Notes: a model not told the origin generated them from the sequence alone. A DNA stretch of 31,479 bases from Candidatus Limnocylindrales bacterium (GCA_035559535.1 DATMBG010000007.1:62001-93479); one strand, 5' to 3'. Positions 13,586 to 31,479 are shown, counted from the first letter of the stretch. Program-made: numbers and translations.

Positions 13586-13728
13586 GGGGAATTTTACTTA
13601 AATTATTTACTAACCAAACCTTTAAAGAACTTGTCCGGAAGAGGGAATTTTGTGTAAATTATTCATGGGATAATAATTTTCTGGATTAGAGGGTCAGTTT
13701 AACAAGTGATCCAGGTTTTGGCTGTACC

Positions 13729-14523: not shown

Positions 14524-14532
14524 AGAAGGCGT

Positions 14533-15165: not shown

Positions 15166-15167
15166 CT

Positions 15168-16176: not shown

Positions 16177-16185
16177 AGCGTATTC

Positions 16186-16214
16186 ACTATGGATGATCTG
16201 AGGAGATAAGTCAA
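16186..16214 (-). promoter_or_regulatory. Candidate sigma70-type promoter of pilD
   Basis: Minus strand TTGACT-17 nt-CATAGT, ending 9 nt before the ATG. Confidence 0.45.
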
Positions 16215-16230
16215 GTTCTTTCGTTTGGAA

Positions 16231-16259
16231 AACCCGGTTTCTTTTTAAGAAACCGGGTT
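16231..16259 (-). terminator. 13-bp perfect hairpin downstream of rplQ; REP-like palindrome and possible terminator
   Basis: AACCCGGTTTCTT ttt AAGAAACCGGGTT; only a short U tract on the minus strand. Confidence 0.5.
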
Positions 16260-16309
16260 CTTTAGAATGGTCAGACAGAAAGTCAAGGATTGAAGGAGGA
16301 AAATCGACT

Positions 16310-16711
16310 TTATGTTCCCTTACTCTCTTCTTTCGCAGGCTTGGCGGCTATTTCCGCGTCGACCAGTTCAATAACCGCCATGGGGGCTGCATCCCCGACC
16401 CGATATTTAGATAACTTAATAACCCGGGTATAGCCACCGTTTCTTTCGGCATATCTCGCTGCAAGGGTATCAAACAATTTTCGAACAACTTTTTTATCCT
16501 GGATAAACTGGAGAACCTGCCTTCGGGCATGGAGGGTTCCACGTTTGGCAAAGGTAATCATATGCTCTGCAAAACGGCGCATGGCTTTAGCCTTTGGGAG
16601 CGTGGTAGTAATTCTCTCATGCCGAAACAGCTCGGTAACCAGATTACGAAGCAGAGCTCTCCGATGACTGGCCGTCCTCCCTAGCTTTTTGACTTTTTTT
16701 CTATGCCGCAT
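16310..16711 (-). CDS. rplQ: 50S ribosomal protein L17
   Basis: [34 protein letters not shown]. Confidence 0.99.
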
Positions 16712-16723
16712 ATTCAACCGAAT

Positions 16724-16772
16724 TCAGGAGTCAGAGTGATCTTTACAAACTTTCTGACTTCTGACTTCTGAC
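16724..16772 (-). repeat. Heptamer hairpin (TTCTGAC x3) at the rpsD/rplQ junction
   Basis: TCAGGAGTCAGA ... TTCTGAC TTCTGAC TTCTGAC. Confidence 0.8.
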
Positions 16773-16775
16773 CTT

Positions 16776-17402
16776 TTATTTAGAATACAGCTCGACAATC
16801 AACTGTTCCTGGATTTGAGGAGAAATATCTTCCCGTTTGGGTAACTCAACAACCGTTCCTTTAAAATTAGCTGCATCTAAGGACAGCCAGGGTGGAATAC
16901 CCCGACGTTGAGCAGCGGTTAAGGACTCTTTAATTCTTACATTTTCTCGACTTTTAGCCTTTACCTCGATTACATCCCCCTTAGAAACTTGATAAGACGG
17001 AATATCCACCAGTTTACCATTAACCAGAATGTGGCGATGTCGGACAAGTTGTCTGGCTTCTTTAATAGAGCTTGCAAACCCCAGGCGATGAACCACGTTG
17101 TCCAGACGCCGTTCTAAGGAGATCAATAAAGCAGCTCCGGTAACTCCCTTTTGTTTGGCCGCTTTTTGGAAATAACGTCTAAATTGTTTTTCTAAAACCC
17201 CGTAAATCCTTTTCACTTTCTGTTTTTCACGCAAGCGAATCCCGTAATCAGATACCTTAGATCGGCGTTGTCCGTGCTGACCTGGTGGATAATTTCGCCT
17301 TTCTATGGGACACTTATCGGTAAAACAGCGTTCTCCCTTTAGATAGAGCTTCATTCCTTCCGCTCTACAAAGCTTACATACAGGACCGGTATAACGTGCC
17401 AC
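16776..17402 (-). CDS. rpsD: 30S ribosomal protein S4
   Basis: [35 protein letters not shown] start with GGAGG. Confidence 0.99.
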
Positions 17403-17419
17403 TCCTTCCTCCGAAACTG

Positions 17420-17495
17420 AATAGGCAATAGGTAACAGGCCCTAGATCGTGAATTGTCTTTTCCTACCCACGGTCTACGGCTTGCTACCCATTAC
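17420..17495 (-). repeat. Heptamer hairpin, rpsK/rpsD
   Basis: AATAGGC AATAGGT AACAGGC...; arms 17425-17453 / 17467-17495. Confidence 0.75.
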
Positions 17496-17499
17496 TTTT

Positions 17500-17889
17500 T
17501 TAAACACGTCGTCTTTTAGGGGGCCTGCAACCATTATGAGGAATCGGTGTTACATCCTTGATGGCTTTAACTTCCAATCCCACAGCCTGTAAGGATCTTA
17601 TGGCCGCTTCCCTTCCGGCTCCAGGCCCTTTTACATAAACTTCTACCTGGCGCATCCCCAGGTCGAGGGCTTTTTTTCCACAATCTCGAGCTGCCATCTG
17701 GGCAGCAAAAGGGGTATTTTTTCGAGATCCCTTATATCCTAAACTGCCGGCACTTGACCAGGTGATAACATTCCCCTCTAAATCGGTAATGGTAACAATG
17801 GTATTATTAAAACTACTCTGAATATGGGCAATACCCTTCTCGATATTTTTTAATTCCCTTTTTTTCTTTTTGGCCCCTTTTTTTCCCAT
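17500..17889 (-). CDS. rpsK: 30S ribosomal protein S11
   Basis: [39 protein letters not shown]. Confidence 0.99.
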
Positions 17890-17900
17890 ACTTAGGGTAC

Positions 17901-17968
17901 TACGCAAAGCGTAATCTGTAGGGCTTTCTAGATCCTACTTTCTGAACTCATTCATTACGCCTTACGTA
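17901..17968 (-). repeat. Heptamer hairpin, rpsM/rpsK
   Basis: TACGCAAAGCGTAAT (17901-17915) / ATTACGCCTTACGTA (17954-17968). Confidence 0.8.
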
Positions 17969-17980
17969 TTCCATCTTCTA

Positions 17981-18364
17981 TTATTTCTTTTTGAGCTGTT
18001 TACGCTTACCTCCAATAGTTCGTCGGGGTCCTTTGCGGGTTCTTGCATTGGTACTCGTCCTCTGACCACGAACCGGAAGTCCTCGTCGGTGACGTAAACC
18101 TCGATAACAACCGATATCCATGAGGCGTTTTATATTCATAGCGACTTCCCTGCGTAAGTCCCCTTCTACTTTATATTTTTCATCGATTATTTTTCTCAGC
18201 GTAACGACTTCTTCGTCGCTTAACTCACCGACCTTTTTATTAAAATCAATTCCGGCTTCTTTTAAAATTTTTTGTGCAGAAGGACGACCGATCCCATAAA
18301 TATAGGTCAAACCGATTTCTACTCTTTTATTCTTCGGTAGATCAATCCCGGCTATGCGTGCCAA
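17981..18364 (-). CDS. rpsM: 30S ribosomal protein S13
   Basis: [29 protein letters not shown] start. Confidence 0.99.
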
Positions 18365-18387
18365 AGTTATAACCTCTCCTTAACTTT

Positions 18388-18448
18388 GGGGCTTGAGACT
18401 TGAGACTTGAGACCGGACGCCGGTCTCTGACCTCTGGCCTCTTGCCTC
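18388..18448 (-). repeat. Heptamer hairpin, rpmJ/rpsM
   Basis: TTGAGAC x3 CGG acg CCGGT CTCTGAC CTCTGGC CTCTTGC CTC. Confidence 0.85.
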
Positions 18449-18459
18449 TAAGAAATTTT

Positions 18460-18573
18460 TCACCCCTGTTTTTGTTTATGCCGAGGGTTCTCACAAATGA
18501 CCCTTACGACACCTTTTCGTTTGACAATCTTGCATTTATCACAGATTTTTTTTACGGAAGCTCGAACTTTCAT
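18460..18573 (-). CDS. rpmJ: 50S ribosomal protein L36, Zn-ribbon type (absent from the ORF track)
   Basis: Manual translation [37 protein letters not shown]. Confidence 0.99.
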
Positions 18574-18579
18574 AATCTG

Positions 18580-18710
18580 AAACCGTCTGGACACCAAGAA
18601 CGTCAAACAGTAAGCACTACCGTCAGATGGTTGCTTGAACTCTTTTTCTCCCCAGGTCTCTGGATCTGTTCCAGCCTTTGCCCCTGGCGTCCTTGGTGTC
18701 CAGACAGTTT
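18580..18710 (-). repeat. 26-bp inverted repeat, infA/rpmJ
   Basis: AAACCGTCTGGACACCAAGAACGTCA (18580-18605) / TGGCGTCCTTGGTGTCCAGACAGTTT (18685-18710). Confidence 0.9.
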
Positions 18711-18712
18711 AC

Positions 18713-18931
18713 CTATTTATGTCGATAAATAATTCGTCCCCGGGTTAAATCATAGGGAGAAAGTTCAACGGTCACTTTATCTCCAGGTAATATTCGAATA
18801 AAGTGTTTACGCATTTTACCCGAAATATGGGCTAAAACTTTATGTCCGTTATCCAGTTCAACCCGGAACATAGCGTTGGGGAGCGGTTCTACCACCGTCC
18901 CTTCCACCTGTATGGCTTCTTCTTTTGGCAT
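18713..18931 (-). CDS. infA: Translation initiation factor IF-1
   Basis: [27 protein letters not shown]. Confidence 0.99.
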
Positions 18932-19016
18932 AAATTTGTTTGCTTATCAAATCCTTTAAATAATATAAGATAGATCGAGATAACTACTGAATAGGGTGAT
19001 ATAGCAATATAATTTT

Positions 19017-19769
19017 TTAATCCAGATTCGTCAATATTTCAGGCCCATTTTCTGTAATCGCAATGGAATGTTCAAAGTGGGCGGATAAACTTCTATCTTG
19101 CGTGACAGCCGTCCATTTATCTTCTAATATTTCAACTTCTGGACCTCCCATGTTTACCATGGGCTCTATGGCCAATACCATCCCGACTCTCAGCCGTTCT
19201 CCTTTACCCGGTGTACCAAAATTAGGGACTTGAGGGTCTTCATGGAGTTTTCTACCTATTCCATGTCCTACAAAATCCCTTACCACCGAGAAGGAGTTCT
19301 TTTCGACGTGGGATTGAACGGCATAAGAAATATCTCCTAACCGATTCCCGGGGTAAGCCTGTTCAATCCCTTTGTAGAGGGCTTCCTGGGTGACTTGAAG
19401 AAGTCTCTCAGCCTCTGGAGAGATTCTTCCAACTGGAACTGTCAGAGCAGCATCTCCATAGTAATTATCAACAACCACGCCTACATCGAGACCTATAATA
19501 TCTCCCGATTTAAGTTTTCGAGAGGAAGGAATTCCATGGACCACCTGTTCATTAACCGACGTACAGATATAAGCTGGATAGTTTCGATACCCCTTAAAAG
19601 CCGATTTAGCCTTTCTTTTCTTCAGCCAGTCTTGGGCAAAGGCATCTAACTCCGCGGTCGTTATTCCCGGGGCAACTAATTTTATTAACTCTTTTAATAA
19701 TTCAGCAACAAGTCGGCAACTTACCTTAATTTTATTTATCTCTTCACGAGATTTTAAAATAACTCCCAT
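19017..19769 (-). CDS. map: Type I methionine aminopeptidase
   Basis: CTSVNEQVVHGIP, GHGIG, AIEPM, SAHFEHS. Confidence 0.98.
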   Translation of the reverse strand: MGVILKSREEINKIKVSCRLVAELLKELIKLVAPGITTAELDAFAQDWLKKRKAKSAFKGYRNYPAYICTSVNEQVVHGIPSSRKLKSGDIIGLDVGVVVDNYYGDAALTVPVGRISPEAERLLQVTQEALYKGIEQAYPGNRLGDISYAVQSHVEKNSFSVVRDFVGHGIGRKLHEDPQVPNFGTPGKGERLRVGMVLAIEPMVNMGGPEVEILEDKWTAVTQDRSLSAHFEHSIAITENGPEILTNLD

Positions 19770-19776
19770 TTTTCAA

Positions 19777-20442
19777 CTACCCTTCCTTTTTTATTTTTGA
19801 AAATATGGCATCCTGGATACTTTTGAAAACATCTTCTATGGTCCGTGCCCCTCCGTCTATGGAGATCAAGGCGCTTTTTTCCCAGTAATATTCTATCAAA
19901 GGTTTAGTCCGGGCGCGATAGACCTCCAACCGTTTCCTTACCGTTTCTTCCTTATCGTCCTCTCGCTGGTATAAAGGGCCTCCACACTTATCACAAACTC
20001 CTTCTTGTAGGGGAGGGTTAAAAATTACGTGAAAGGTTTCTCCACAATTCCGACATACCCTTCTGCCGGAGACTCTTTTGATAAGTTCTTCTTCCTGGAG
20101 ATAAATATTAATCACGGCATCTAGATAGAGACCTCTCTGCCTGAGAATCTCATCCAGAGCCACAGCTTGCCAGATAGTCCTCGGAAACCCATCCATCAGC
20201 CATCCTTTCTGGCAATCCACCTCTTGAAGCCGATCTTTAATGATACCGATCATAATTTCATCTGGAACCAGTTCTCCCTTTTCCAAATAAATTTGGGCTT
20301 TTTTTCCAAGAGGAGTCCCTTCTTTGACGGCTTGTCTTAAAATATCTCCGGTAGAGATTTGAGGTATGTTATAGGTTTTGGAAAATAATTTGGCCTGTGT
20401 CCCTTTACCGGCTCCCGGGGGGCCCATGAAAATTAGGTTCAT
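19777..20442 (-). CDS. adk: Adenylate kinase with Zn-binding LID
   Basis: GPPGAGKGTQA, STGDILR, DGFPRT, CRNC/CDKC. Confidence 0.99.
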   Translation of the reverse strand: MNLIFMGPPGAGKGTQAKLFSKTYNIPQISTGDILRQAVKEGTPLGKKAQIYLEKGELVPDEIMIGIIKDRLQEVDCQKGWLMDGFPRTIWQAVALDEILRQRGLYLDAVINIYLQEEELIKRVSGRRVCRNCGETFHVIFNPPLQEGVCDKCGGPLYQREDDKEETVRKRLEVYRARTKPLIEYYWEKSALISIDGGARTIEDVFKSIQDAIFSKIKKEG

Positions 20443-20449
20443 TTAACGG

Positions 20450-20539
20450 CCGCCCGCTGCCTATTGTTTAGTAAAGACGTTACCTATGACTTCTCTACAG
20501 ACAACGGACAACGGACAACAGACAATGGACCACGGATAG
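20450..20539 (-). repeat. Heptamer tandem array and G-U-rich complementary arm, secY/adk
   Basis: CAGACAA CGGACAA CGGACAA CAGACAA TGGACCA CGGATAG (20498-20539) versus CCGCCCG CTGCCTA TTGTTTA (20450-20470). Confidence 0.85.
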
Positions 20540-20544
20540 TCCTC

Positions 20545-21852
20545 CTACCTTCTTCCTCGAAGCCTTCCTTTTTTCATAAAACCTTCATAATGCCGAGTCA
20601 AGAGATGGGACTCGATTTGCTGTACGGTATCCAGGGCAACACCTACAACGATTAAAAGGGCCGTACCTCCAAAGAAGAAAGGAACATTCATGGTTGTTAT
20701 CAGAAGTTCAGGAAGTATGGCAATCAAGGCCAGGAAGATAGCTCCGGCTAAAGTAATTCGCGTAAGTACCGAATCAATATACAGGGCGGTTTTCTTTCCA
20801 GGTCGCACGCCTGGAATAAAACCTCCATACTTTTTCATATTATCTGCCAGATCGGTTGGATTAAAAATGATGGCCGTATAGAAGTAGCAGAAGAAAATGA
20901 TAAAGGCTGCATATAGAACGGTGTGGAGCATATGACCGGGAGATAGATTCTCTGCGATGGCCTGGGTCCAGGGATGTTTAATAAATCGAGCTATCGTTGC
21001 CGGAAATACAATGATGGACGAAGCAAAGATAACGGGAATAACGCCCGGGGTATTTACACGGAGAGGAATATGGGTATTCTGACCCCCGTAGATTTTTCTC
21101 CCAACGACGCGTTTGGCATATTGAACAGGTATTTTTCTTACCGCTTGTTGCATCACGACCACGGCTGCTACCACAAAAATGATAAGTACTAAAATTCCCA
21201 GGATAGAAAAAATTTTCATCTCTCCGATCTGGATCCGCTCGATCGTTAAGAATATTGCGGAAGGAAGTCTATCGACGATACCTGCAAAAATGATGAGCGA
21301 AATGCCATTTCCAATTCCCCGTTCCGTGATTTGTTCCCCAAGCCACATAAGGAATGCCGTACCGGCTGTGAGTGTAAGAACCGTTACGAACCGGAAGCTC
21401 CAACCAGGATAAGGAACCACAGGAGCTCCACCCTGGCTATGCATTCCTTCTAAACCAAAGCTGATTCCTAGGGCCTGGATAGCACTTAGAACCACCGTTC
21501 CATATCGGGTATACTGGGTGATCTTTTTCCTTCCCTGTTCACCTTCCTTAGCCAGCCTTTCCAAATAGGGTACAACTACCGTTAAAAGCTGAAGAATAAT
21601 AGAAGCACTGATATACGGCATAATCCCTAAAGCAAAGATTGTTAGCCTTCCCAGTGCTCCTCCCGAGAACATATCTACAAATCCTAAGATTGTATCTTTT
21701 TGCCTGGCAAAGAATTCACTTAAAGCCACCCCATCGATGCCCGGAGTTGGAATATGGGAGCCAATTCGATAAACGACCAAAAGAGCTAACGTAATTAAAA
21801 TCCTTCGCTTTAGCTCAGGTACTTTAAATATGTTTTGGACTACCTGTAACAA
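20545..21852 (-). CDS. secY: Preprotein translocase subunit SecY
   Basis: IFALGIMPYISASII, WLGEQITERGIGNGISLII, GFIPGVRPG, FGGTALLIVVGV; TTG 21852 with SD GAGGG. Confidence 0.99.
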   Translation of the reverse strand: MLQVVQNIFKVPELKRRILITLALLVVYRIGSHIPTPGIDGVALSEFFARQKDTILGFVDMFSGGALGRLTIFALGIMPYISASIILQLLTVVVPYLERLAKEGEQGRKKITQYTRYGTVVLSAIQALGISFGLEGMHSQGGAPVVPYPGWSFRFVTVLTLTAGTAFLMWLGEQITERGIGNGISLIIFAGIVDRLPSAIFLTIERIQIGEMKIFSILGILVLIIFVVAAVVVMQQAVRKIPVQYAKRVVGRKIYGGQNTHIPLRVNTPGVIPVIFASSIIVFPATIARFIKHPWTQAIAENLSPGHMLHTVLYAAFIIFFCYFYTAIIFNPTDLADNMKKYGGFIPGVRPGKKTALYIDSVLTRITLAGAIFLALIAILPELLITTMNVPFFFGGTALLIVVGVALDTVQQIESHLLTRHYEGFMKKGRLRGRR

Positions 21853-21873
21853 GGGGTATACCCTCTCTGTTGA

Positions 21874-21926
21874 ACAATGAACAACAACAATAAACAATTA
21901 ATTGTTTATTGTTAATTGTCCCTTGT
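21874..21926 (-). repeat. Heptamer (AACAAT-type) hairpin with a perfect 28-bp palindromic core over the rplO stop
   Basis: AACAATAAACAATT|AATTGTTTATTGTT at 21886-21913, with imperfect extension. Confidence 0.85.
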
Positions 21927-22374
21927 GATTGGTTAATTGAACTGCTTCTCCACCGGCTGTTTTAATTTTTTCTAAAGCAGACTTACTAAAAGCATGGGCC
22001 TGGATCGTCAACCGTTTGGTGAGATCCCCATCCCCGAGAATTTTAATCTCGTATTTATCATTTTTTATAAGACCGCGCTGGATTAACAGGTCTGGTGTGA
22101 TCACACTCCCTTCCTCAAAGACTTCATTTAAGCGACCGATGTTAATAATGCTATATACTTTCTTAAATATGTTGGTAAATCCCCGTTTAGGAATACGACG
22201 TTGCAGGGGCATTTGTCCGCCTTCAAATTGAGGTTTAAGTCTGCTACCTGAACGGGCTTTCTGTCCTTTATGTCCTCTGCCGGAAGTCTTGCCGTGTCCC
22301 GAGCCGGGGCCACGGCCTACCCGTTTTTTCTTTTTTCTAGAGCCCTTCGCGGGCTTTAACTCGTGTAACTTCAT
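21898..22374 (-). CDS. rplO: 50S ribosomal protein L15
   Basis: [37 protein letters not shown]. Confidence 0.98.
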
Positions 22375-22378
22375 GTAT

Positions 22379-22452
22379 TGAAAGAAAGGGTGAAGGGTAA
22401 AGGATGAAAAGCAACGTTTATTCATCCTTTAGCCTTCCGCCTTTAGCCTTCA
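22379..22452 (-). repeat. Heptamer hairpin, rpmD/rplO
   Basis: Minus strand GAAGGCT AAAGGCG GAAGGCT AAAGGAT GAA / TTCATCC TTTACCC TTCACCC TTTC. Confidence 0.85.
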
Positions 22453-22649
22453 GTGTCTGGAACCTCTTCAACTTTTAAAATTTTTATAAGATACATCACC
22501 TGTCTCAGCATCCCTCGGATTTCGGGAGTATCTTTGCGAACTACCACTTTATTGGTTTTCGTTAAGCCCAGGCCCCGAAGAGTTTCCCGATGTTTCCTGA
22601 TGGTGCCAATAGGGCTTTTAGCAAGTTTGATGGTAATCAGTCGTGCCAT
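22443..22649 (-). CDS. rpmD: 50S ribosomal protein L30
   Basis: IKLAKSPIG, TLRGLGL, DTPEIRGM; position after rpsE. Confidence 0.96.
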   Translation of the reverse strand: MARLITIKLAKSPIGTIRKHRETLRGLGLTKTNKVVVRKDTPEIRGMLRQVMYLIKILKVEEVPDTEG

Positions 22650-22651
22650 AA

Positions 22652-23170
22652 TTACGCCTCTACTTCTTTTTCTTCTCCTTGTTGAACAGGTTTAGTAGAT
22701 CTATATTCAGCCACCAACAAAGGATCTTTTAAGCTCTCCAAGGCTTTTATAGTGGCTTTCACAACATTATGAGGATTGGTAGAACCGATGGCCTTAGTCA
22801 AAATATCCTGGATACCGGCAGATTCTACCACAGCCCGAACAGCACCCCCTGCGATGACCCCGGTTCCTCGAGAAGCAGGTTTTAAAAATACCTGACTGGC
22901 TCCATATTTTCCGAGAACCTGATGAGGAATTGTCGCCCCTTTCAGGGGAATCTTTATCAGGTTTTTCTTGGCATTTTCTATACCCTTCCGGATTGCTTCG
23001 GGGACTTCATTGGCTTTTCCCAAACCATATCCCACATAACCATTACGGTTCCCTACTACTACCAAGGCGCTGAAGCTAAATCGCCTTCCCCCTTTTACCA
23101 CTTTCGCAACCCGACTGATATGAACCACCCTATCGGTTAACTCTAATTCTTTTACATCGATCCGCGCCAC
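22652..23170 (-). CDS. rpsE: 30S ribosomal protein S5
   Basis: [29 protein letters not shown]. Confidence 0.99.
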
Positions 23171-23190
23171 CTACATCTCCTTTCCCTACC

Positions 23191-23227
23191 CATGGAGTCC
23201 GAGAATTCTAAGAATTCTCGGGCCATG
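23191..23227 (-). repeat. Hairpin, rplR/rpsE
   Basis: CATGG..CCGAGAATTCT a AGAATTCTCGG.CCATG. Confidence 0.8.
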
Positions 23228-23233
23228 CAGGAA

Positions 23234-23599
23234 TTAAAACTGTAAACCACCTTCACGGGCTGCGGTAGCCAGTGCTTTAACCCGGCCATGAAATTTATAA
23301 CCGCCTCTATCAAAGACAACGGCTTTGATATTTTTTTCTAAAGCTTTTTGAGCCAGTATCCGGCCCAAAACCTTAGCAGCTTCAATATTACCGCCATTTT
23401 TAACACTTTCTTTAATTTCAGAACTTAAGGTCGAAAGACCCAGTAACGTATGACCCTTTTCATCATCGATAATTTGAGCATACATATTCCGAGCACTTCT
23501 AAAAACACTCAACCTGGGACGCTCTGAAGTTCCTTTTACTTTTTTTCTAACCCGCTTATGCCGTTTTTTTCTATGTTCCTCTTTAGTCAACTGTGGCAT
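23234..23599 (-). CDS. rplR: 50S ribosomal protein L18
   Basis: [30 protein letters not shown]. Confidence 0.98.
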
Positions 23600-23676
23600 G
23601 GTAAGTAAGAATAAGTCATAAGTAGCAAATAGCAAGGTAAAGAAAATGATTCACGACTTACTATTTACCACTTACC
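23600..23676 (-). repeat. Heptamer hairpin, rplF/rplR
   Basis: Minus strand GGTAAGT GGTAAAT AGTAAGT / CTTGCTA TTTGCTA CTTA...ACTTACC directly before the ATG. Confidence 0.8.
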
Positions 23677-23681
23677 GTTTT

Positions 23682-24218
23682 TTAAGCACCGGCTTTTCCA
23701 ACCTTACGGCGAATACGTTCACCTTCGTATCGAATTCCTTTACCTTTATAAGGTTCCGGTTTCTTAATATTCCGAATTTCTGCGGCTACCTGACCAACCT
23801 GTTGTTTATCAGCGCCTTTCACCAGTATCTTCGTATTATCTCGGACCTCAATGGTAACTCCATCTGGAATAGGGTAATTGACAGGATGGGAATACCCTAC
23901 ATTTAAAGTAAGTACTCTTCCTTCAACCTTTGCACGATAACCGATTCCCTCAATTTCTAACCCCTTACTAAATCCCTGGGTAACCCCGGTAACCATGTTG
24001 GCTATTAAGGTTCTGGATAATCCATGAAGAGAACGATAGCGTTTCTCATCAGATTCCCTTGTAACCAGGAGTTGCCCATTCTGATGGACTACCTTGATAC
24101 CGTTGGGGATTCGATATTCCAATTTACCCAGAGGTCCTTCTACCCTACAGAGGGAATCCTCTACTGTAACCTTAACATTTTTAGGCAACTCAATAGGCTT
24201 TTTACCGACTCTGGACAT
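23682..24218 (-). CDS. rplF: 50S ribosomal protein L6
   Basis: MSRVGKKPI, PEPYKGKGIRY. Confidence 0.99.
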   Translation of the reverse strand: MSRVGKKPIELPKNVKVTVEDSLCRVEGPLGKLEYRIPNGIKVVHQNGQLLVTRESDEKRYRSLHGLSRTLIANMVTGVTQGFSKGLEIEGIGYRAKVEGRVLTLNVGYSHPVNYPIPDGVTIEVRDNTKILVKGADKQQVGQVAAEIRNIKKPEPYKGKGIRYEGERIRRKVGKAGA

Positions 24219-24229
24219 GATTAACAATC

Positions 24230-24274
24230 AACCACAAGCCGTAAACTATTCAGCCTGGTTTATGGCTTGTGGTT
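24230..24274. repeat. Heptamer hairpin, rpsH/rplF
   Basis: AACCACAAGCCGTAAACT / GGTTTATGGCTTGTGGTT. Confidence 0.85.
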
Positions 24275-24297
24275 AATAATTCCCTGTTCGGTGAAGG

Positions 24298-24684
24298 CTA
24301 CCATACGTAGCATAGCACCTCGCCGCCAACTCCCATTAAGCGGGATTCTTTATCTGTCAAAATACCTTTAGAAGTAGAAAGGATGGCGATCCCTAACCCT
24401 CCCAGCACTCGAGGAATGGCATCTTTTCGTTTATAAACCCTGCACCCTGGTTTACTTACCCGTTGTAGATTTGTGATAACCCTTTTCCCCTCGGGAGTGT
24501 ATTTTAGATAAATTCGTAGAGCATTTCCAACCATTTTATATCCACGAATGAATCCTTCTCTCTTAAGCAATCTGGCTATTTCACCTTTTAATTTAGATGA
24601 GGGCACATCGGTATAAGGTTTATAGACCAGATTGGCGTTTCGGATTCGCGTTAACATATCGGCAATAGGATCTGTAGTGGCCAT
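24298..24684 (-). CDS. rpsH: 30S ribosomal protein S8
   Basis: [31 protein letters not shown]. Confidence 0.99.
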
Positions 24685-24696
24685 CTTAACCCATCG

Positions 24697-24754
24697 AGAA
24701 GCCAGAGGCAAGAAGCAACAGGGTTCCCTTTCTTACCTCTTGCCTTTTGCTTCT
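24697..24754 (-). repeat. Heptamer hairpin, rpsN/rpsH
   Basis: AGAAGCC AGAGGCA AGAAGCA A / TTACCTC TTGCCTT TTGCTTC T. Confidence 0.85.
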
Positions 24755-24938
24755 ACCAGCTCGCTTTGATAACCCCAGGTATCTCTCCCTTTGAGGCCAG
24801 GGTTCTGAAACAAATACGACACATTTTAAACTTTCGGATATAACCCCGAGGTCTGCCGCATATCAGGCAGCGATTCCTCTGTCTTGAACTAAATTTTGGT
24901 TTCTTTTTGGCTTTTGCAATAGATGCTGTTCTTGCCAC
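24753..24938 (-). CDS. rpsN: 30S ribosomal protein S14, Zn-binding type Z
   Basis: [10 protein letters not shown]...MCRICFR...[11 protein letters not shown]. Confidence 0.99.
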
Positions 24939-24961
24939 AGTATTTTCCCTAAATCTTAGGA

Positions 24962-25021
24962 GCTAAGGGGCCTAAAGGGTCTAAAGTTAAAGGAAACTTT
25001 AGACCCCTTAGATCTCTTAGC
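24962..25021 (-). repeat. Nonamer hairpin, rplE/rpsN
   Basis: CTAAGGGGC CTAAAGGGT CTAAAGTT / AACTTTAG ACCCCTTAG ATCTCTTAG. Confidence 0.88.
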
Positions 25022-25043
25022 CTGTTAGACACCTCTTATTTAT

Positions 25044-25586
25044 TTATTGCCTGAAGGGCATACCCAGCTCTGCGAGAAGAGCTTTTCCCTCTTCATCGGT
25101 TTTAGCCGTCGTAACAATGGCTACATTAAGTCCCCTGATTTTATCCACTTTATCGTAATTTATTTCAGGAAATATAATTTGTTCCCGAAGACCCAAGGTG
25201 TAATTTCCTCTTCCATCGAAGGATTTGGGAGAAACTCCTTTGAAATCTCTAACCCGGGGAAGAGCTACATTCACCAATCTATCCAGAAACTCATACATAC
25301 GCTGCTTGCGTAAGGTTACCATACATCCGATGGGCATACCGGCCCTTAGCTTAAAACTGGCTATGGACTTTTTAGCCCGTCTTATGACCGGTTTCTGACC
25401 GGTAATAGCCGCTAACTCCTCTGCCGCAGCATCCAGAACTTTAATATCTGAAACCGCTTCTCCCAACCCCATGTTTACCACAATTTTTTCTAATCTGGGT
25501 ACCTGCATCACGTTTTTATATCCAAATTGCTTCATCAAATTTGGAATTACAACTTCCCGATATTTTCTTTCCAATCGTGATTTCAT
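25044..25586 (-). CDS. rplE: 50S ribosomal protein L5
   Basis: [33 protein letters not shown]. Confidence 0.99.
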
Positions 25587-25597
25587 GAAAGTCAATG

Positions 25598-25648
25598 GTA
25601 GGGCGAGACGTTATTCCCCTTTCGGGGTAAAGCACCCTTCTGCCCTAC
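25598..25648 (-). repeat. GTAG-type hairpin with tetraloop, rplX/rplE
   Basis: GTAGGGC...GCCCTAC enclosing CCCC-GAAA-GGGG on the minus strand. Confidence 0.7.
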
Positions 25649-25974
25649 TTATCAATAATCTCTCCACACTTCTTGCATGTTCTGACATTACGGCCGTCTT
25701 CTAATCGGGTTTTCCCAATACGGGTAGGTTTTTTACAATTTGGGCAATTGAGCATTACATTGGAGACGTGAATACCTCCTTCCATCTCCACAATACCACC
25801 CCCTTGCCCCTGTGCTCTTTTTTTAAGGTGCTTTTTAATCAGGTTAACTTTTTCCACAATCACTTTTCCTTTTTTAGGGATCGTTCTTAAAATCTTACCC
25901 GTTTTACCTTTTTCTTTTCCGGCAATAACAGTAACCGTATCTCCTTTTCTGACATGAAATTTGATCCTAGGCAT
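25645..25974 (-). CDS. rplX: 50S ribosomal protein L24
   Basis: KOW motif [25 protein letters not shown]; start is ATG 25974 or GTG 25980. Confidence 0.98.
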
Positions 25975-25982
25975 AACCACCT

Positions 25983-26055
25983 GTATGGGTGTATAGGGTG
26001 TGGGTCTGTGGAAAGTAAGGTATAGATAGTTTTTCTCACGCCCATACGCCCATAC
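25983..26055. repeat. Octamer hairpin, rplN/rplX
   Basis: GTATGGGT GTATAGGG TGTGGG / CTCACG CCCATACG CCCATAC. Confidence 0.85.
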
Positions 26056-26062
26056 TTCTCTT

Positions 26063-26431
26063 TTAAATGACTTCCGGAGCCAGGGACAATATTTTGGTAA
26101 ATTCTTTATCCCGGAGTTCTCGGGCTACCGGACCAAAGATTCTGGTTCCCATGGGTTCATTTTGGGGGGTTAAGAGTACTGCCGCATTTTTATCAAACTT
26201 AATATAAGATCCATCTTTCCTTCTCATTTCTTTAGCTACCCGGACAACGACCGCCTTCACCACGTCACCTTTTTTTACAGAACCCCCTGGAGAAGCCTCT
26301 TTAACAGCGGCCATAATCACATCTCCGACATATCCATATTTCTTATTTGAACTTTCCATAATCCGAATGCACATAATCTCTTTGGCTCCGGAATTATCTG
26401 CAACTTCAAGTCTTGTCTGTGGTTGTATCAT
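26063..26431 (-). CDS. rplN: 50S ribosomal protein L14
   Basis: [37 protein letters not shown]. Confidence 0.99.
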
Positions 26432-26711
26432 CTCCTTCACCCTCCTGTTCCGTTAATTGAGCTTTCTTTAGAATTTTAACTACGCGCCACCGTTTCTCTT
26501 TACTGAGTGGCCTCGTCTCCCATATCTCAACAATATCTCCTATGGAGCATTTATTCTCCTCATCATGGGCTTTAAACTTTTTCGATCTTTTGATCGTTTT
26601 ATTATATCTGGGGTGTTGAATAAATCTAGTCACCTCAACGACCACCGTCTTCATCATTTTATTACTGACCACAACTCCCTGTCTTACCTTCCTTCTCCCT
26701 GGTTTTTCCAT
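26406..26711 (-). CDS. rpsQ: 30S ribosomal protein S17
   Basis: [30 protein letters not shown]. Confidence 0.98.
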
Positions 26712-26729
26712 CTTTGGAAGAGCTTAGCA

Positions 26730-26806
26730 TACTTAAAGTGAGCTAAAAGGTTTTTTTACTTTAGTTCACTTTAAGCAGTTTCGACCCTTAAAAACTTCAG
26801 GCACTT
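26730..26806 (-). repeat. Nonamer-type hairpin, rpmC/rpsQ
   Basis: TACTTAAAGTGAGCTAAAA (26730-26748) / CTTTAGTTCACTTTAAGCA (26759-26777), plus an extra ACTTCAGGCAC unit. Confidence 0.85.
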
Positions 26807-26816
26807 AAAAGACCCT

Positions 26817-27035
26817 TTAGGCCTTTCCCCTGGTCTCTTTCTCCGCCGCCAGCTCCCTTTCCCGAATAATGGTCAACACTCTTGCAAGATCCCGTCGAAC
26901 GTTTCTGATAATTTGTGGATTTTCAGCCTGATTGGTTGCAATCTGAAATCTCAAATTAAAGAGTTCTTCTCGTAAGTCCCTTTCCCGTTCTTTTAGTTCT
27001 TCGTCCGTTAATTCTCTCAGTTCTCGCGCTTTCAC
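26817..27035 (-). CDS. rpmC: 50S ribosomal protein L29
   Basis: [25 protein letters not shown]. Confidence 0.98.
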
Positions 27036-27049
27036 CGCTTACTCCTTTC

Positions 27050-27454
27050 TTACCGTACCACAAATTTGGTTTTAATAGGAAGCTTGTGGGCAGCTAGGCG
27101 TAGAGCATCTCTGGCGAGTTCTTCAGGAATGCCATCCATCTCATAAATGATACGACCAGGCTTAACCACAGCTACCCAATGATCCAGAGCTCCTTTTCCT
27201 TTACCCATTCGAGTTTCCGTAGGCTTCGAGGTGACAGGTTTATCTGGAAAAATACGTATCCACATTCTTCCACTTCTTTTTACTTTTCGTGTGATAGCAA
27301 TACGGGCTGCTTCGATCTGGCGATCTGTAATATAACCGGGTTCTAAAGCCTGCAGACCAAATTGACCAAAATTAAGCGTAGAACCTCGATAAGCTTTACC
27401 CTTCATCCTTCCCCGTTGTTGCTTTCGATATTTTACCTTTTTAGGCATTAACAT
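27050..27454 (-). CDS. rplP: 50S ribosomal protein L16
   Basis: [24 protein letters not shown]. Confidence 0.99.
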
Positions 27455-27499
27455 AGCTAAGACTCCTTTGAAGTTTTCAGGTTAAGCTATTTACCAACC

Positions 27500-28228
27500 C
27501 TAAACCTTAGCGGGTTGTTGAAGAGTTTTTTGACCGGACTGACTTTGTTGACCGGACTGACCTTGTTGAACCTGTTGATTTTGTTCCTTGGACTGATTAT
27601 TCCTCGAAAGAACTTCTCCTTTAAAAATCCAAACCTTGACCCCTATCAATCCATAAGTGGTCAGGGCTTGTGAAAAACCATAATCGATATCAGCCCGTAA
27701 AGTATGTAGAGGAACTCTCCCCTCTCGATACCATTCGGTTCTGGCCATTTCCGAACCATCTAACCGACCACTACAGGAAACCTTGATGCCATAAGCCCCC
27801 AAGCGCATAGCCGACGATACACTTCTTTTCATGGCACGGCGAAACGAAACTCTTCTTTCCAGTTGAAGAGCTATATTTTCAGCCACTAATTGAGCATCAA
27901 GCTCTGCTCTTCTAACTTCATAGATATTGACCTGGATTTGTTTACCGGTAAGGGCTTGCAGACTTTTCTTCAATTTATCGACCTCTGCACCTTTCCGACC
28001 GATGATAATTCCGGGGCGTGCAGTATGAATATTTACGGTAGTCTTCTCAGCAGCCCGCTCGATTTCAACTTTAGAAATCCCGGCATGGGATAATTTGTCT
28101 TTGACAAAATTTCGGATTTTCAAGTCTTCATGGAGCAGATCTGCATAATTCTTCTCCGCATACCATTTAGAGTTCCAAGTCTTAATAATTCCTAATCTTA
28201 AACCTATTGGATTAACTTTTTGTCCCAA
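27500..28228 (-). CDS. rpsC: 30S ribosomal protein S3
   Basis: [30 protein letters not shown] start with GGAGGT. Confidence 0.99.
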
Positions 28229-28244
28229 GCATTACCTCCCTCCT

Positions 28245-28302
28245 TGTTGATTGTTGATCGTCCATTAGATTTTAGTCCCTCCTGGACGATCGACAATGAA
28301 CA
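28245..28302. repeat. Heptamer hairpin, rplV/rpsC
   Basis: TGTTGAT TGTTGAT CGTCCA / TGGACGA TCGACAA TGAACA. Confidence 0.8.
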
Positions 28303-28306
28303 CTAA

Positions 28307-28648
28307 TTATTCCTTTGGTTTTTCATCTAAAATAATGGTAATATGGCTGGATCTCTTTCGAATTGGCGTTGCACGCCCCATAGCCCTTGGTAAATACCTT
28401 CGCTGGGTTGGGCCATCATCTGCAAAAGCCTGACTAATGTAGAGGGCATCCACGTCGGCTTCAGAATTTTCTTCTGCGTTAGCAATAGCCGAGCGTAAAA
28501 TTTTAGCAATGGTACGAGCAACCGCTTTCGGGGAATATTCCAGGATATTCAGGGCTTCTTCTACCGGTTTACCCCGGATGAGATCGATGACGAGTCTGGC
28601 TTTTTGAGGTGAAACCCGAATGTATCGTCCTACGGCTTTGGCTACCAC
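28307..28648 (-). CDS. rplV: 50S ribosomal protein L22
   Basis: [30 protein letters not shown]. Confidence 0.99.
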
Positions 28649-28656
28649 ATCTGTTT

Positions 28657-28735
28657 AAGTGTTCTAAAGTGAGCTAGACGGTTTAAAGTTTTTATGGCTT
28701 GTCATTTCAGGTTTTCTAGCTCACTTCAGGCACCC
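28657..28735 (-). repeat. Nonamer-type hairpin, rpsS/rplV
   Basis: AAGTGTTCTAAAGTGAGCTAGA / TCTAGCTCACTTCAGGCACCC. Confidence 0.85.
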
Positions 28736-28739
28736 TAGC

Positions 28740-29045
28740 TTATTTTTCTGTCCTTTCTCCGGCTTTCTTTACCGTGGTTGTTTTCTCACTTTTCCCGTGT
28801 CCTCGATAGGTTCTGGTGGGTGCAAACTCACCCAGTTTATGTCCCACCATATTTTCGGTTATAAACACCGGAATAAACTTTTTACCGTTATGAACGGCAA
28901 AATAATGACCTACGAATTCAGGAATAATGGTAGAACGCCGGGACCAGGTCCGAATGGGCTTTCTTTCCCCGGTTTGAGCCATTTTTCTTACTTTTCTCAA
29001 CAGGCTTTCATCTACGAAAGGACCTTTCTTAACTGAACGGGGCAT
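28740..29045 (-). CDS. rpsS: 30S ribosomal protein S19
   Basis: [31 protein letters not shown]. Confidence 0.99.
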
Positions 29046-29052
29046 ATTTTCA

Positions 29053-29103
29053 GAAGATAGAAGTCAGAAGCCAGGGATTTTCTGACTTCTGACTTTTATC
29101 TTC
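29053..29103 (-). repeat. Heptamer hairpin (TCAGAAG), rplB/rpsS
   Basis: 22-bp arms GAAGATAGAAGTCAGAAGCCAG / CTGACTTCTGACTTTTATCTTC. Confidence 0.88.
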
Positions 29104-29104
29104 C

Positions 29105-29926
29105 TTATTTACGGCGCTTTATAATTAATTTATCAGAAGGTTTTTTCTTTCGAGTTTTATAGCCTTTAGTCGGCATACCCCAAGGACTGACCGGATGTCG
29201 ACCTCCAGAAGTTTTTCCTTCTCCTCCCCCCATGGGATGGTCTACAGGATTCATGGCCACTCCCCGAACACGGGGTCGCCTTCCCAACCATCTGGATCTG
29301 CCGGCTTTTCCAATGCTAATGTTTTCATGTTCTATATTACCTACGGTTCCGATAGTTGCCGAACAATCCAGATGAATAAGTCGAATCTCGCCTGAAGGAA
29401 GCTTTACCTGGGCATAATCTCCTTCCTTGGCCATAATCTGAGCACTATTTCCGGCACTCCTAACCAGTTGTCCGCCTCTACCTTTTTTGAGTTCGATATT
29501 ATGGATATCCGTTCCCACGGGGATGTTCCTTAAAGGAAGGCAATTACCCACTTTGATATCTGCCTCCGGTCCGGCCACCACCGTATCTCCTACCTTCAGC
29601 CCTAAGGGAGCCAGGATATATCTCTTTTCTCCGTCCAGGTAATGGAGTAAAGCAATTCTGGCAGATCTATTGGGATCGTATTCAATGGCCGCTACTTTCG
29701 CCGGAATAGCAATTTTATCTCGCTTAAAATCGATGATTCGATAAAAACGTTTATGACCTCCACCCCGATGACGACTGGTAATTCTTCCGGCGTTATTTCT
29801 TCCTCCCGTTTTTTTAAGCGGCTTAATTAATTTCTTTTCAGGCTCTGTCTTGGTAATCTCTTCAAACGTATAACCGGTCCGAAATCTTATACCCGGTGAG
29901 GTCGGTTTATATGTTTTAATACCCAT
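29105..29926 (-). CDS. rplB: 50S ribosomal protein L2
   Basis: [30 protein letters not shown]. Confidence 0.99.
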
Positions 29927-29929
29927 CGC

Positions 29930-29995
29930 AGGAAGTCAGAAGTCAGAAGTTAAGATCGTTTTCTCCAGACTTCTGACTTCTGATCTCTGACTCCT
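29930..29995 (-). repeat. Heptamer hairpin (TCAGAAG), rplW/rplB
   Basis: AGGAAG TCAGAAG TCAGAAGT / ACTTCTG ACTTCTG ATCTCTG ACTCCT. Confidence 0.88.
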
Positions 29996-29999
29996 AGTC

Positions 30000-30287
30000 T
30001 TATTCTAAGATCGGGATTTTATCTCCTTCCCTTAAGGTCGCAATCGCTTTCTTCCAATCCGGTCGTTTACCAGAAGTTCGACCTCGCCTTCTCACTTTGC
30101 CAAGAACGTTGATGGTATTCACTTTTAACACTTTGACTGCAAAAATCTCTTCGAGGGCCTTTTTTATTTCAATTTTATTGGCGTTTCGATCTACCTCAAA
30201 GACATATTTATTGTATTTGGCTTTCAGGCGAGAATTTTTCTCCGAAAAAAGTGGTCGTTTGATAATGCTATACACGTCTTTTTTCAT
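30000..30287 (-). CDS. rplW: 50S ribosomal protein L23
   Basis: [29 protein letters not shown] overlap with rplD. Confidence 0.98.
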
Positions 30288-30916
30288 GGTACCAATGCCC
30301 CTTCCAAATAATCTACGCCTGATTTATCTAAAATAAGATAATCATGTCGTAAAGCTGTATAAACGTCTAGATGCTCCACACGCACGACCCCTACACCGGG
30401 GATATTCCGTGCAGACCTCCATACCCACTCTGTCCAATCTCCAAGGGCCAACAGGGCAGAGGGTTCTTCGCTTCCTGTTAAACCCTTTAAAATCTTATAC
30501 ATTTCTTTGGTTTTGGGCTTCTCCAGGTTAAACCTGTCTACCACGAGGAGTTTAGATTCCCTCAATTTAGCGGTTAAAACAGATCTTAAGGCAGATCTTC
30601 GGACTTTTTTGGGAACAGAATAAGAATAATCCCTGGGTTTGGGACCGAAAACGACACCCCCACCTCGCCAGAGAGGGGAACGAATAGTTCCAGCCCTGGC
30701 GCGACCGGTTCCTTTCTGTCTCCAAGGCTTCCGTCCACCCCCACTTACTTCCGATCTGCCCTTTGTAGAGGCGGTTCCTTGCCGTCTATTGGCTAATTGG
30801 GCACGAACGACCTCATGAACCACATGCTCTTTGATCTCCCCATCAAAGACTTCCGGGTTGAGGTTCCTCTCCTCTACTTTTGAATTGTTAATATCTACAA
30901 TATTTATCGTAGGCAC
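30284..30916 (-). CDS. rplD: 50S ribosomal protein L4
   Basis: [35 protein letters not shown] 30916 preceded by AGGAG. Confidence 0.99.
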
Positions 30917-30930
30917 CGGTACTCCTGCAG

Positions 30931-30985
30931 AAGAGTGTGGGCATATGGCAACAGAATGATCCTGTTGCCATATGCCCACACTCTT
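30931..30985. repeat. Perfect 24-bp inverted repeat, rpsJ/rplD
   Basis: AAGAGTGTGGGCATATGGCAACAG aatgatc CTGTTGCCATATGCCCACACTCTT. Confidence 0.95.
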
Positions 30986-31294
30986 TTATAACTTGATTTT
31001 CACATCGACCCCTGCTGGTAAATCCAACCGCATTAAAGCATCCACCGTTTGGGGAGTTGGTTCAAGAATATCTAGAATTCTTTTATGGGTTCTGATCTCA
31101 AATTGCTCCCGAGATTTTTTATCCACATGGGGAGATCGAAGGACTGTAAACCTACTGATTTTTGTAGGCAAAGGAATAGGGCCGACCACCCTTGAGCCGG
31201 TACTTTGGGCCGTGTTAACAATCTCGACTACCGATTGATCCAGCAGTTGATGATCATAAGCTTTTAAACAGATTCGAATATTCTGATTCGGCAT
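30986..31294 (-). CDS. rpsJ: 30S ribosomal protein S10
   Basis: [27 protein letters not shown]. Confidence 0.99.
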
Positions 31295-31300
31295 AATCCC

Positions 31301-31371
31301 GAAATCAGGAGGCAGTTTTCAGGAGTCCGTTTAAATAAATTTTCTTTCTCCTGAATCTTTTCTCCTGACTC
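31301..31371 (-). repeat. Heptamer-type hairpin (TCAGGAG), tuf/rpsJ
   Basis: GAAATCAGGAG..TCAGGAG / CTCCTGA..CTCCTGACTC, 14-nt period. Confidence 0.8.
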
Positions 31372-31374
31372 TCT

Positions 31375-31479
31375 CTACTCAAGAATATCACTGACCACTC
31401 CAGCCCCTACCGTCTTCCCTCCTTCCCGTATCGCAAACCTCAACTCCTTCTCCATCGCAACCGGTGTGATCAACTCCGC
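31375..31479 (-). CDS. tuf: Elongation factor Tu, 3' end only
   Basis: Manual translation [34 protein letters not shown]. Confidence 0.97.

Follow-up and report, generated by a model that had tools for sequence, protein, structure and literature searches.

Nearly every long spacer of a ribosomal protein gene block, located on the minus strand of a 31,479-nucleotide stretch of DNA from an uncultured relative of a filamentous bacterium (G000:C7:62001-93479, G000 being the studied genome of 5.6 Mb; the whole stretch is hereafter the window), holds a stable stem-loop, in many cases with arms built of short tandem repeats. The block extends from the end of tuf (stop codon at 31375-31377) to rplQ (16310-16711) and comprises 30 genes and 29 junctions according to open reading frame (ORF) listing and tblastn against relatives, in agreement with the junction count given by an earlier, model-generated reading of the DNA (hereafter the sequence-only reading). 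The stem-loops are real and statistically well supported, and their accumulation is extreme for a ribosomal operon; hairpins downstream of genes occur throughout the genome and the order, and the block is their densest local sample. Ribosomal protein operons are a textbook case of tight spacing and translational coupling, whereas the median spacer here measures 73 nt and the genes still form one block. It is considered moderately likely that the intercistronic stem-loops are specific to their loci, having been built in place through slippage of repeat units and then held by selection on pairing, or by templated correction in place of selection.

Stem-loops and tandem-repeat arms in the block spacers

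Start codons of the block genes were set by homology before the spacers were measured. Five junctions are shorter than 20 nt (rplD/rplW -4, rplP/rpmC 14, rpsQ/rplN -26, rpsE/rpmD 2 and adk/map 7 nt), and these unfoldable cases are the two overlaps and three short spacers that the sequence-only reading had set apart as exceptions. The other 24 spacers measure 45-139 nt, and each was folded with RNAfold and compared with 200 dinucleotide-preserving shuffles. One dominant hairpin was found in 20 of them, with stems of 18-48 bp and folding free energies (dG) of -15.3 to -61.0 kcal/mol. For 16 spacers, at most one of the 200 shuffles was equally stable (z -3.1 to -9.5), and four more (rpsN/rpsH, rplN/rplX, rpsD/rplQ and rpmC/rpsQ) have moderate hairpins, with z between -2.5 and -1.4. 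The remaining four (rpsC/rplP, rplX/rplE, rplO/secY and map/infA) fold no better than their dinucleotide shuffles. Long inverted repeats had been proposed for 22 of the 29 junctions; 20 are solid, and rplX/rplE and rplO/secY are marginal only. The proposal of one element per junction agrees with the roughly one hairpin per junction seen here, and neither of the outcomes named as fatal to it, spacers folding no better than shuffled sequence or a single described repeat family, was obtained. About seven further hairpins had been suggested for the plus-strand genes of the window, where six of nine spacers of at least 30 nt reach z <= -2.8 and one more -2.4 (mononucleotide shuffles).

Arrays of period 7, 8 and 9 were detected by Tandem Repeats Finder (TRF) at the sites previously named. 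Over the pooled spacers, self-matching at lag 7 is 0.373 compared with 0.257 after shuffling (z=11.7), with a second signal at lag 14 (z=6.5). Tested singly with 500 shuffles, 14 of 21 hairpins show arm periodicity (p<0.05), with a lag of 7 in 12 of them, of 9 in one and of 10 in another; the other seven do not. The architecture (unit)n-loop-(reverse-complement unit)m described from the sequence is thus real. The accompanying claim that the unit changes from junction to junction stands insofar as sequences diverge between junctions, but the units are not all different: on reading the spacers, a TCAGRAG unit is common to tuf/rpsJ, rplW/rplB, rplB/rpsS and rpsD/rplQ, and a AAGTGAGCT core to the rpsS/rplV and rpmC/rpsQ hairpins. 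The non-coding tandem 7-nt direct repeats that characterize short tandemly repeated repetitive (STRR) sequences and heptamer long simple sequence repeats (LSSR) are present, both as TRF arrays and in the lag-7 signal. The other hallmark of those classes, a few families covering most arrays, was found for period-8 arrays and not for period-7 arrays, 226 of which in non-coding DNA contain 107 distinct heptamer units, the commonest occurring in 17.

This diversity bears on the idea that the periodic units serve a sequence-specific DNA- or RNA-binding protein as an array of binding sites, with the hairpin secondary. The strong 7-nt periodicity and the genome-wide recurrence of some preferred units would suit such a role, and the TAACTGA repeats of Beggiatoaceae, which are direct repeats of one unit, have been proposed as such sites in the available text of a study of that group (PMC4679880). 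It is nonetheless very improbable here, because a single reader protein cannot fit 107 different heptamers and because nearly every unit has a reverse-complement counterpart, for which site arrays have no use.

The hairpins fill almost the whole of their spacers. Of the 20 hairpins, 16 begin 0-12 nt past the stop codon (15 of them within 8 nt), and 17 end 5-16 nt short of the following start codon. The folded stop-to-start distance is about 5-43 nt (median about 14-15 nt). A Shine-Dalgarno-like motif occurs in the last 20 nt of only seven of the 24 long spacers; the 16S rRNA 3' end still carries the usual CCUCCU. Given the position of the hairpins near the stop codon, a terminating ribosome would have to melt the base of most stems, and the placement would correspond to the classical arrangement for structure-mediated translational coupling. 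Short relay ORFs abutting both neighbouring genes were also considered and discarded: none was found, and a stop-free frame exists in nine of the 24 spacers compared with 11.6 expected from shuffles.

Hairpins downstream of genes across the genome

For the genome as a whole, genes were called with a crude caller of our own (4762 genes, 85.5% coding), which makes starts, and thus spacer classes, approximate. A simple inverted-repeat finder gave 1410 hairpins in non-coding DNA, a density of 1735 per Mb, compared with 163 per Mb for coding DNA; period-7 arrays occur at 278 and 15 per Mb, respectively, and period-8 arrays at 309 and 15 per Mb. Among spacers of 70-109 nt, the share with a hairpin is 31% between co-directional genes and 33% between convergent ones, but 11% between divergent ones. 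No other 15-kb stretch of the genome is as dense as the ribosomal block, which has 16 hairpins against a mean of 3.8; the cytochrome c oxidase operon (G000:C6:86000-101000) comes second, with 15 hairpins in 15 kb, including some with AAACGTA heptamer arms. A preference for ribosomal stop/start junctions in particular is not supported, the hairpins being found downstream of genes genome-wide and the oxidase operon being nearly as dense; the more general idea of the sequence-only reading, that something builds or keeps hairpins at gene ends, is supported. Codon adaptation is a weak predictor of hairpins, which rise from 14% to 31% across its deciles.

In a survey of ribosomal protein clusters from other bacteria (80 loci tried, nine dropped for fewer than 10 scorable junctions), the next best of the 71 scored has five strong DNA-level hairpins and most have none or one, compared with 16 in the window. 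The comparison genomes include the sister species G001, placed in the same genus by a SecY identity of 100%, and seven members of the same order, whose SecY is 78-79% identical. Long spacers containing tandem heptamers (ATTGACG x4, TTGACAA arrays) occur in the order-level relatives too; at orthologous junctions, these relatives either have sequences unrelated to those of the window or lack a strong hairpin. Ribosomal cluster spacers of one Methylomirabilota and one Desulfobacteraceae metagenome-assembled genome have a lag-7 excess of about 0.2, so heptamer-built spacers may occur in further phyla.

The concentration of hairpins past stop codons resembles that of intrinsic terminators across bacterial phyla as reported in the available text of PMC13155455, and convergent spacers are as hairpin-rich as co-directional ones, as might be expected if the stems were terminators or attenuators setting transcript levels along the operon. 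Yet the short GC-rich stem followed by a U-run that defines an intrinsic terminator is seldom seen: only 10% of 886 co-directional hairpins have at least six T in the 10 nt past the stem, and, compared with classic terminators, stems are far longer (a median of 17 bp, with a maximum of 48 bp) and loops larger (a median of 17 nt). Tails after the block stems are not T-runs (for example CTGCG, GAAAAT and CGTTAA), and only the palindrome at 16231-16259 fits a terminator. Some 20 terminators within one essential, equimolar operon would moreover be self-defeating, and this role is highly improbable. Known RNA families were searched for with Rfam cmscan over the whole window (E<=1), which gave three chance-level matches, all far below gathering scores, and no ribosomal protein leader.

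Hairpins downstream of genes tend to begin with the purine-rich arm. This arm comes first in 562 cases against 297 in co-directional spacers, and in 186 against 34 when arms are periodic, that is, an excess of 2:1 overall and 5.5:1 with periodic arms, compared with 105 against 103 in divergent spacers. An inverted repeat is identical on both strands, so the bias is a preference between classes of hairpin; its interpretation as an orientation bias relative to transcription was dropped for that reason. Speculatively, one possible reason is that the nascent RNA of a purine-first hairpin would not expose a C-rich single strand.

Comparison with the sister species and origin of the hairpins

One G001 contig aligns to window positions 13497-28240 (14.8 kb) at 93% nucleotide identity, with 94.1% in coding sequence and 85.8% in spacers. 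All 17 comparable spacers of at least 20 nt are occupied in both species, with hairpin or sequence kept in place. Exactly one 7-nt unit differs between the species in an arm of the secY/adk hairpin, and two double, pair-preserving changes are seen in the rpsH/rplF stem. Within the 5.6-Mb genome, 20 of the 24 block spacers have no second copy (blastn-short, E<=1e-3); the matches of the other four are arrays of the same unit as the spacer, or a short duplicated stretch.

These results make it distinctly unlikely that small selfish or mobile hairpin elements, of the kind of repetitive extragenic palindromes (REP/REPIN), miniature inverted-repeat transposable elements (MITE) or 'heptamer hairpin elements', invaded the junctions and then diverged. 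Such an invasion could explain why TCAGRAG units stand at four junctions and in 17 arrays genome-wide, why GGACAAC arrays elsewhere match the secY/adk spacer, why one octamer family dominates the period-8 arrays and why other palindromic families are present or absent between G000 and G001. It does not agree with the uniqueness of most block spacers or with the occupancy of every comparable site, no terminal repeats or target duplications were seen on reading the spacers, and similarity to other loci ends at the repeat array itself. Identity with REP/REPIN, which form many near-identical dispersed palindromes, and with MITE, in view of the shared occupancy and the absence of flanking duplications from the spacers as read, was rejected accordingly. 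The suggestion that the hairpins are remnants of mobile cassettes is likewise not supported: there is no empty site among the 17 spacers, and no mobiliser ORF lies inside the block spacers, a search aimed at RAYT or transposase genes not having been made.

Several repeats outside the block behave differently. Palindromic families present or absent between the two species were seen at C21:52073, C40:60621, C29:11069 and C58:33004, including a palindrome of about 25 nt of the form TAGGTCAAACG..CGTTTGA and hairpins of the form CCCCTCTCCC..GGGAGAGGGG, and they behave in the manner of mobile REP- or MITE-type elements, unlike the block hairpins. The octamers belong mostly to one family, RTGGGRGT, which accounts for the majority of the 251 period-8 arrays in non-coding DNA. 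Of the 96 strict inverted array pairs of the genome, 74 are of this family, and 64 of the 96 lie within 100 nt. A giant intergenic hairpin of this family (G000:C13:8882-9025) has 67-nt arms of about eight units each. The single gene with a PF05635 domain (23S rRNA intervening-sequence protein; G000:C36:150968-151490) has inverted octamer arrays close on either side, (GTGTGGGR)n lying upstream and (YCCCACAC)n downstream, and the whole amounts to a hairpin whose loop holds an ORF. This case of a possible mobiliser belongs to the octamer family and not to the heptamers of the block. Octamer-bracketed genes were rejected as mobiliser candidates in general, the approximately 7-10 long-range pairs corresponding to chance expectation (a rough estimate from about 190 arrays and about 4700 spacers).

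Over a wider alignment (673 kb of the sister genome, 552 kb mapped), divergence between the species is 11.8% in stems, 18.3% in loops, 13.3% in other non-coding DNA and 13.9% at third codon positions. For a comparison of structure, 50 orthologous hairpins were taken that lack indels and differ by one or more substitutions, and the control was the same substitutions placed at random. Mean minimum free energy is -24.8 kcal/mol in G000 and -23.5 in G001, compared with -18.0 after random placement, and the actual G001 sequence is more stable than random placement in 45 of the 50 hairpins (Wilcoxon p=2.6e-11). The hairpins were picked in G000, which biases the comparison against this result, so the test is conservative. 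Mismatches in stems as read on the sense strand are G.U in 701 cases and A.C in 539, the sole strand-specific hint of action at the RNA level.

Other observations weigh against slippage in place followed by selection on pairing, or against a function in RNA. Stems diverge barely more slowly than the neutral classes. Among 1795 stem pairs, 25 pair-preserving double changes and 185 one-sided breaks were counted, and pairs changed on both sides amount to 1.67% where slid controls give about 1.2%, which is weak evidence of compensation in the classical sense. Structure is kept equally on both strands (6.06 and 5.74 kcal/mol rescued, p=0.30), and the constraint could therefore act at the DNA level, or reflect templated correction, and not concern RNA. 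Taken by itself, the excess of Watson-Crick to G.U changes between species falls short of significance (82 vs 63, p=0.13), and the rplN/rplX hairpin is far more stable in antisense. The slippage origin is weakly documented: 7-nt indels between the species form only a small bump, numbering 23 where 6-nt and 8-nt indels number 18 and 15, and eight of 28 seven-nt indels are tandem duplicates of neighbouring sequence. Finally, AAGTCAG recurs in 17 arrays and AACGGAC in 16 over the genome, which a purely in-place origin leaves unexplained. A metagenome scan with SecY for covariation orthologs yielded no relative above 73% identity, leaving one usable sister species.

The near-neutral rates of stem substitution and the equal conservation of both strands are also what would be expected if the hairpins were neutral filler, that is, if a mutation bias of the lineage (heptamer slippage and template switching) made palindromes everywhere, which persist only where harmless, because a folded hairpin adds no effective stop-to-start length. 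The filling of spacers down to a short folded distance, the unrelated or hairpin-poor orthologous junctions of the order-level relatives and the weak link to codon adaptation point in the same direction. This explanation is regarded as fairly unlikely, as the sister species retains 5.5 kcal/mol beyond what its own substitutions would leave if placed at random (although templated correction of the arms could mimic this), loops diverge 1.5 times as much as stems, hairpins are threefold rarer in divergent spacers of equal length, and the purine-first excess is absent from divergent spacers.

In the preferred account of locus-specific stem-loops built in place, the starting point would be a small inverted repeat, both arms of which gain tandem copies of 7-9-nt units through replication slippage. 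The arms would probably be kept complementary with the help of intrastrand template switching (template switching can create and maintain RNA hairpins; PMC8794818, available text), and selection would then retain pairing as the sequence drifts. It is plausible that the stems serve in the processing or protection of mRNA or in translational coupling. The long double-stranded stems may serve as processing or 3'-protection sites, RNase III-like, by analogy with phage T7 early genes; the predicted stems fit the approximately 20 bp or more of double-stranded RNA that characterizes RNase III sites. Alternatively, they may act in translation coupling, where the terminating ribosome would open the base of the stem and free the region before the next start. 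If the stems act in RNA, the operon offers about 20 natural, sequence-diverse test cases for processing, stability and re-initiation; if they are neutral, mutation bias can remodel essential operons, provided that the insert folds away.

Known systems, feature positions and gene block

REP, BIME and REPIN elements, which go with RAYT transposases, are extragenic palindromes located past genes and within operons, where they protect upstream mRNA. They form families of near-identical copies, in contrast to the block hairpins, which are mostly single-copy, much longer and tandem-built. The RNase III hairpins of phage T7 early mRNA and the inverted repeats at the 3' end of chloroplast mRNAs are processing or stabilising signals and not terminators. 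The block resembles these systems in having one long stem-loop per junction of a polycistronic transcript, here as judged from sequence, and differs from both in that T7 and chloroplast stems are not made of tandem repeats. Heptamer repeats are also known from cyanobacterial STRR sequences and from helix P12 of RNase P; these are internal to a ribozyme or belong to a few families in heterocystous cyanobacteria, whereas the repeats described here are intercistronic.

The closest described counterparts are the GGGAATC heptamer arrays of Xanthomonas, with 70 and 75 convergent, stem-loop-capable pairs in two species (Rehm et al. 2015, PMC4692102). According to the available text, the pairs are mostly intergenic, near the upstream ORF and between co-directional genes, and their position is conserved while length and sequence vary (PMC4692102). 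The block shares inverted heptamer-array pairs that are intergenic and close together, with position kept between related species. It differs in having many locus-specific units, mostly without G-tracts, where Xanthomonas has a single G-rich, quadruplex-capable unit; only the octamer family RTGGGRGT of the studied genome resembles that single-unit situation. Saturation of a ribosomal operon is not among the Xanthomonas features reported in the available text (PMC4692102). In the tRNA-Leu intron of Nostoc, the P6b hairpin is formed of heptanucleotide repeats and variants differ in repeat copy number (PMC3488679, available text); that hairpin lies inside a structured intron, while the present ones are intercistronic, in another phylum and with more than 100 different units among them. 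Heptanucleotides are the commonest class of 5-11-nt bacterial long simple repeats, for which slippage has been proposed (Mrazek 2007, as summarised in PMC4679880). That survey, as summarised, concerns direct arrays, and the pairing of arrays into gene-junction hairpins is the feature seen here. Across bacteria, arms of inverted repeats have been reported to be more conserved than their spacers (PMC13155455, available text).

The architecture is thus already known from Xanthomonas and Nostoc, and the block is a local view of a genome-wide habit. Literature searches, supplements aside, found no paper describing such hairpins in KSB3/Modulibacteria, and the words hairpin, intergenic and heptam have no occurrence in the KSB3 genome paper, its supplements aside (PMC4312070). 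The recurrence of the design in distant lineages makes the old question of the purpose of heptamer repeats more general. It can be conjectured, as a doubtful and quite improbable extension, that one hairpin-building process operates in several unrelated lineages (here, in cyanobacteria and in Xanthomonas), with the stems as tunable couplers. Heptamer slippage and intrastrand template switching would then let even the most tightly coupled operon grow long spacers, the terminating ribosome would open the stem base and make the released 3' arm available for starting translation of the following gene, which often lacks a Shine-Dalgarno motif, and the purine-arm-first rule would keep the nascent RNA from showing a C-rich Rho loading site.

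Table 1. Hairpins and related structures of the ribosomal protein block, in window coordinates (stem lengths are folded base pairs; dG in kcal/mol; z relative to dinucleotide shuffles; lag values are tests of arm periodicity).
Feature	Positions	Strand	Description
tuf/rpsJ hairpin	31302..31371	-	20 bp, dG -23.2, z -3.3; arms of a 13-14-nt unit containing TCAGGAG (TRF, RNAfold)
rpsJ/rplD hairpin	30931..30985	-	Perfect 24-bp palindrome, 26 bp folded, dG -46.3, z -9.5; at the usual place of rplC in other bacteria
rplW/rplB hairpin	29932..29987	-	(TCAGAAG)3 against (CTTCTGA)3, 21 bp, dG -27.7, z -4.4; lag 7 p=0.002
rplB/rpsS hairpin	29052..29104	-	AGTCAGA units, 22 bp, dG -30.8, z -8.4; from the stop codon to 6 nt before ATG
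rpsS/rplV hairpin	28657..28735	-	Core AAGTGAGCTAGA, 27 bp, dG -25.8, z -4.8
rplV/rpsC hairpin	28245..28302	-	3' arm of ATCAACA units, 21 bp, dG -24.7, z -4.9
rpmC/rpsQ hairpin	26718..26789	-	Units AAAGTGAAC / TAAAGT, 24 bp, dG -21.3, z -1.4; lag 10 p=0.03; loop insertion in sister species
rplN/rplX hairpin	25991..26055	-	Genome-wide octamer family, (GTATGGGC)2; antisense folds better (-37.0 vs -23.4); z -2.0
rplE/rpsN hairpin	24961..25022	-	Nonamer units CTAAGRGRT, 26 bp, dG -35.5, z -4.2; lag 9
rpsN/rpsH hairpin	24699..24752	-	AGGCAAG/AGGTAAG units, 20 bp, dG -25.0, z -2.5
rpsH/rplF hairpin	24227..24277	-	19 bp, dG -23.9, z -4.7; two double compensatory changes vs sister species; 0/100 simulations as stable
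rplF/rplR hairpin	23618..23675	-	GGTAAGT units, 24 bp, dG -24.2, z -5.6; sense -25.0 vs antisense -12.1
rplR/rpsE hairpin	23183..23233	-	Palindrome centred on GAATTC, 21 bp, dG -24.6, z -3.1; arms non-periodic
rpmD/rplO hairpin	22387..22442	-	GGCGGAA/GGCTAAA/GGATGAA units, 19 bp, dG -24.9, z -4.9
rplO/secY spacer	21853..21897	-	Tandem TTGTTNA heptamers (TRF); no significant hairpin within the spacer, z -0.3
secY/adk hairpin	20449..20519	-	5' arm (TTGTCYG)5 pairing largely via G-U, 27 bp, dG -31.3, z -4.5; sense -39.1 vs antisense -21.9
infA/rpmJ structure	18579..18712	-	Long-range stem around a branched structure, 48 bp, dG -61.0, z -6.7
rpmJ/rpsM hairpin	18371..18457	-	(AGAGGYM)4 against (AGTCTCA)3; per unit 5 bp and a 2-nt mismatch; 28 bp, dG -31.8, z -4.7
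rpsM/rpsK hairpin	17896..17972	-	25 bp, dG -24.1, z -4.0
rpsK/rpsD hairpin	17425..17495	-	3' arm of CCTRTTR units, 28 bp, dG -37.5, z -5.6
rpsD/rplQ hairpin	16720..16768	-	5' arm (GTCAGAA)3, 18 bp, dG -15.3, z -2.0; at the place of rpoA in relatives
post-rplQ palindrome	16231..16259	.	13-bp, GC-rich, A/T flanks, faces a convergent gene; the block's only classic bidirectional-terminator-like hairpin

The order of the block is tuf-rpsJ-rplD-rplW-rplB-rpsS-rplV-rpsC-rplP-rpmC-rpsQ-rplN-rplX-rplE-rpsN-rpsH-rplF-rplR-rpsE-rpmD-rplO-secY-adk-map-infA-rpmJ-rpsM-rpsK-rpsD-rplQ. Family searches located rplC (C13:9746-9997) and rpoA (C17:3055-3954) outside this S10-spc-alpha block, solitary on other contigs. 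Each solitary locus (rplC, G000:C13:9656-10300; rpoA, G000:C17:2989-4032) has its own hairpin behind the gene, and the gaps where rplC and rpoA would sit in the block are at window positions 30917-30985 and 16712-16775. The rplC gene is out of the block in four order-level relatives as well, rpoA only in the studied genus, and the blocks of the relatives are without adk and map. The rpsQ/rplN overlap of 26 nt (window 26406-26431) is unusually long for that gene pair.

The closest named SecY record is that of 'Bacterium UASB14' (79% identity), which is handled as a KSB3/Modulibacteria bin in the KSB3 genome paper (PMC4312070, available text), and the SecY matches suggest a placement of the lineage near KSB3/Modulibacteria. 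Gene sharing among KSB3, cyanobacteria and giant sulfur bacteria has been reported in the available text of PMC6390638.

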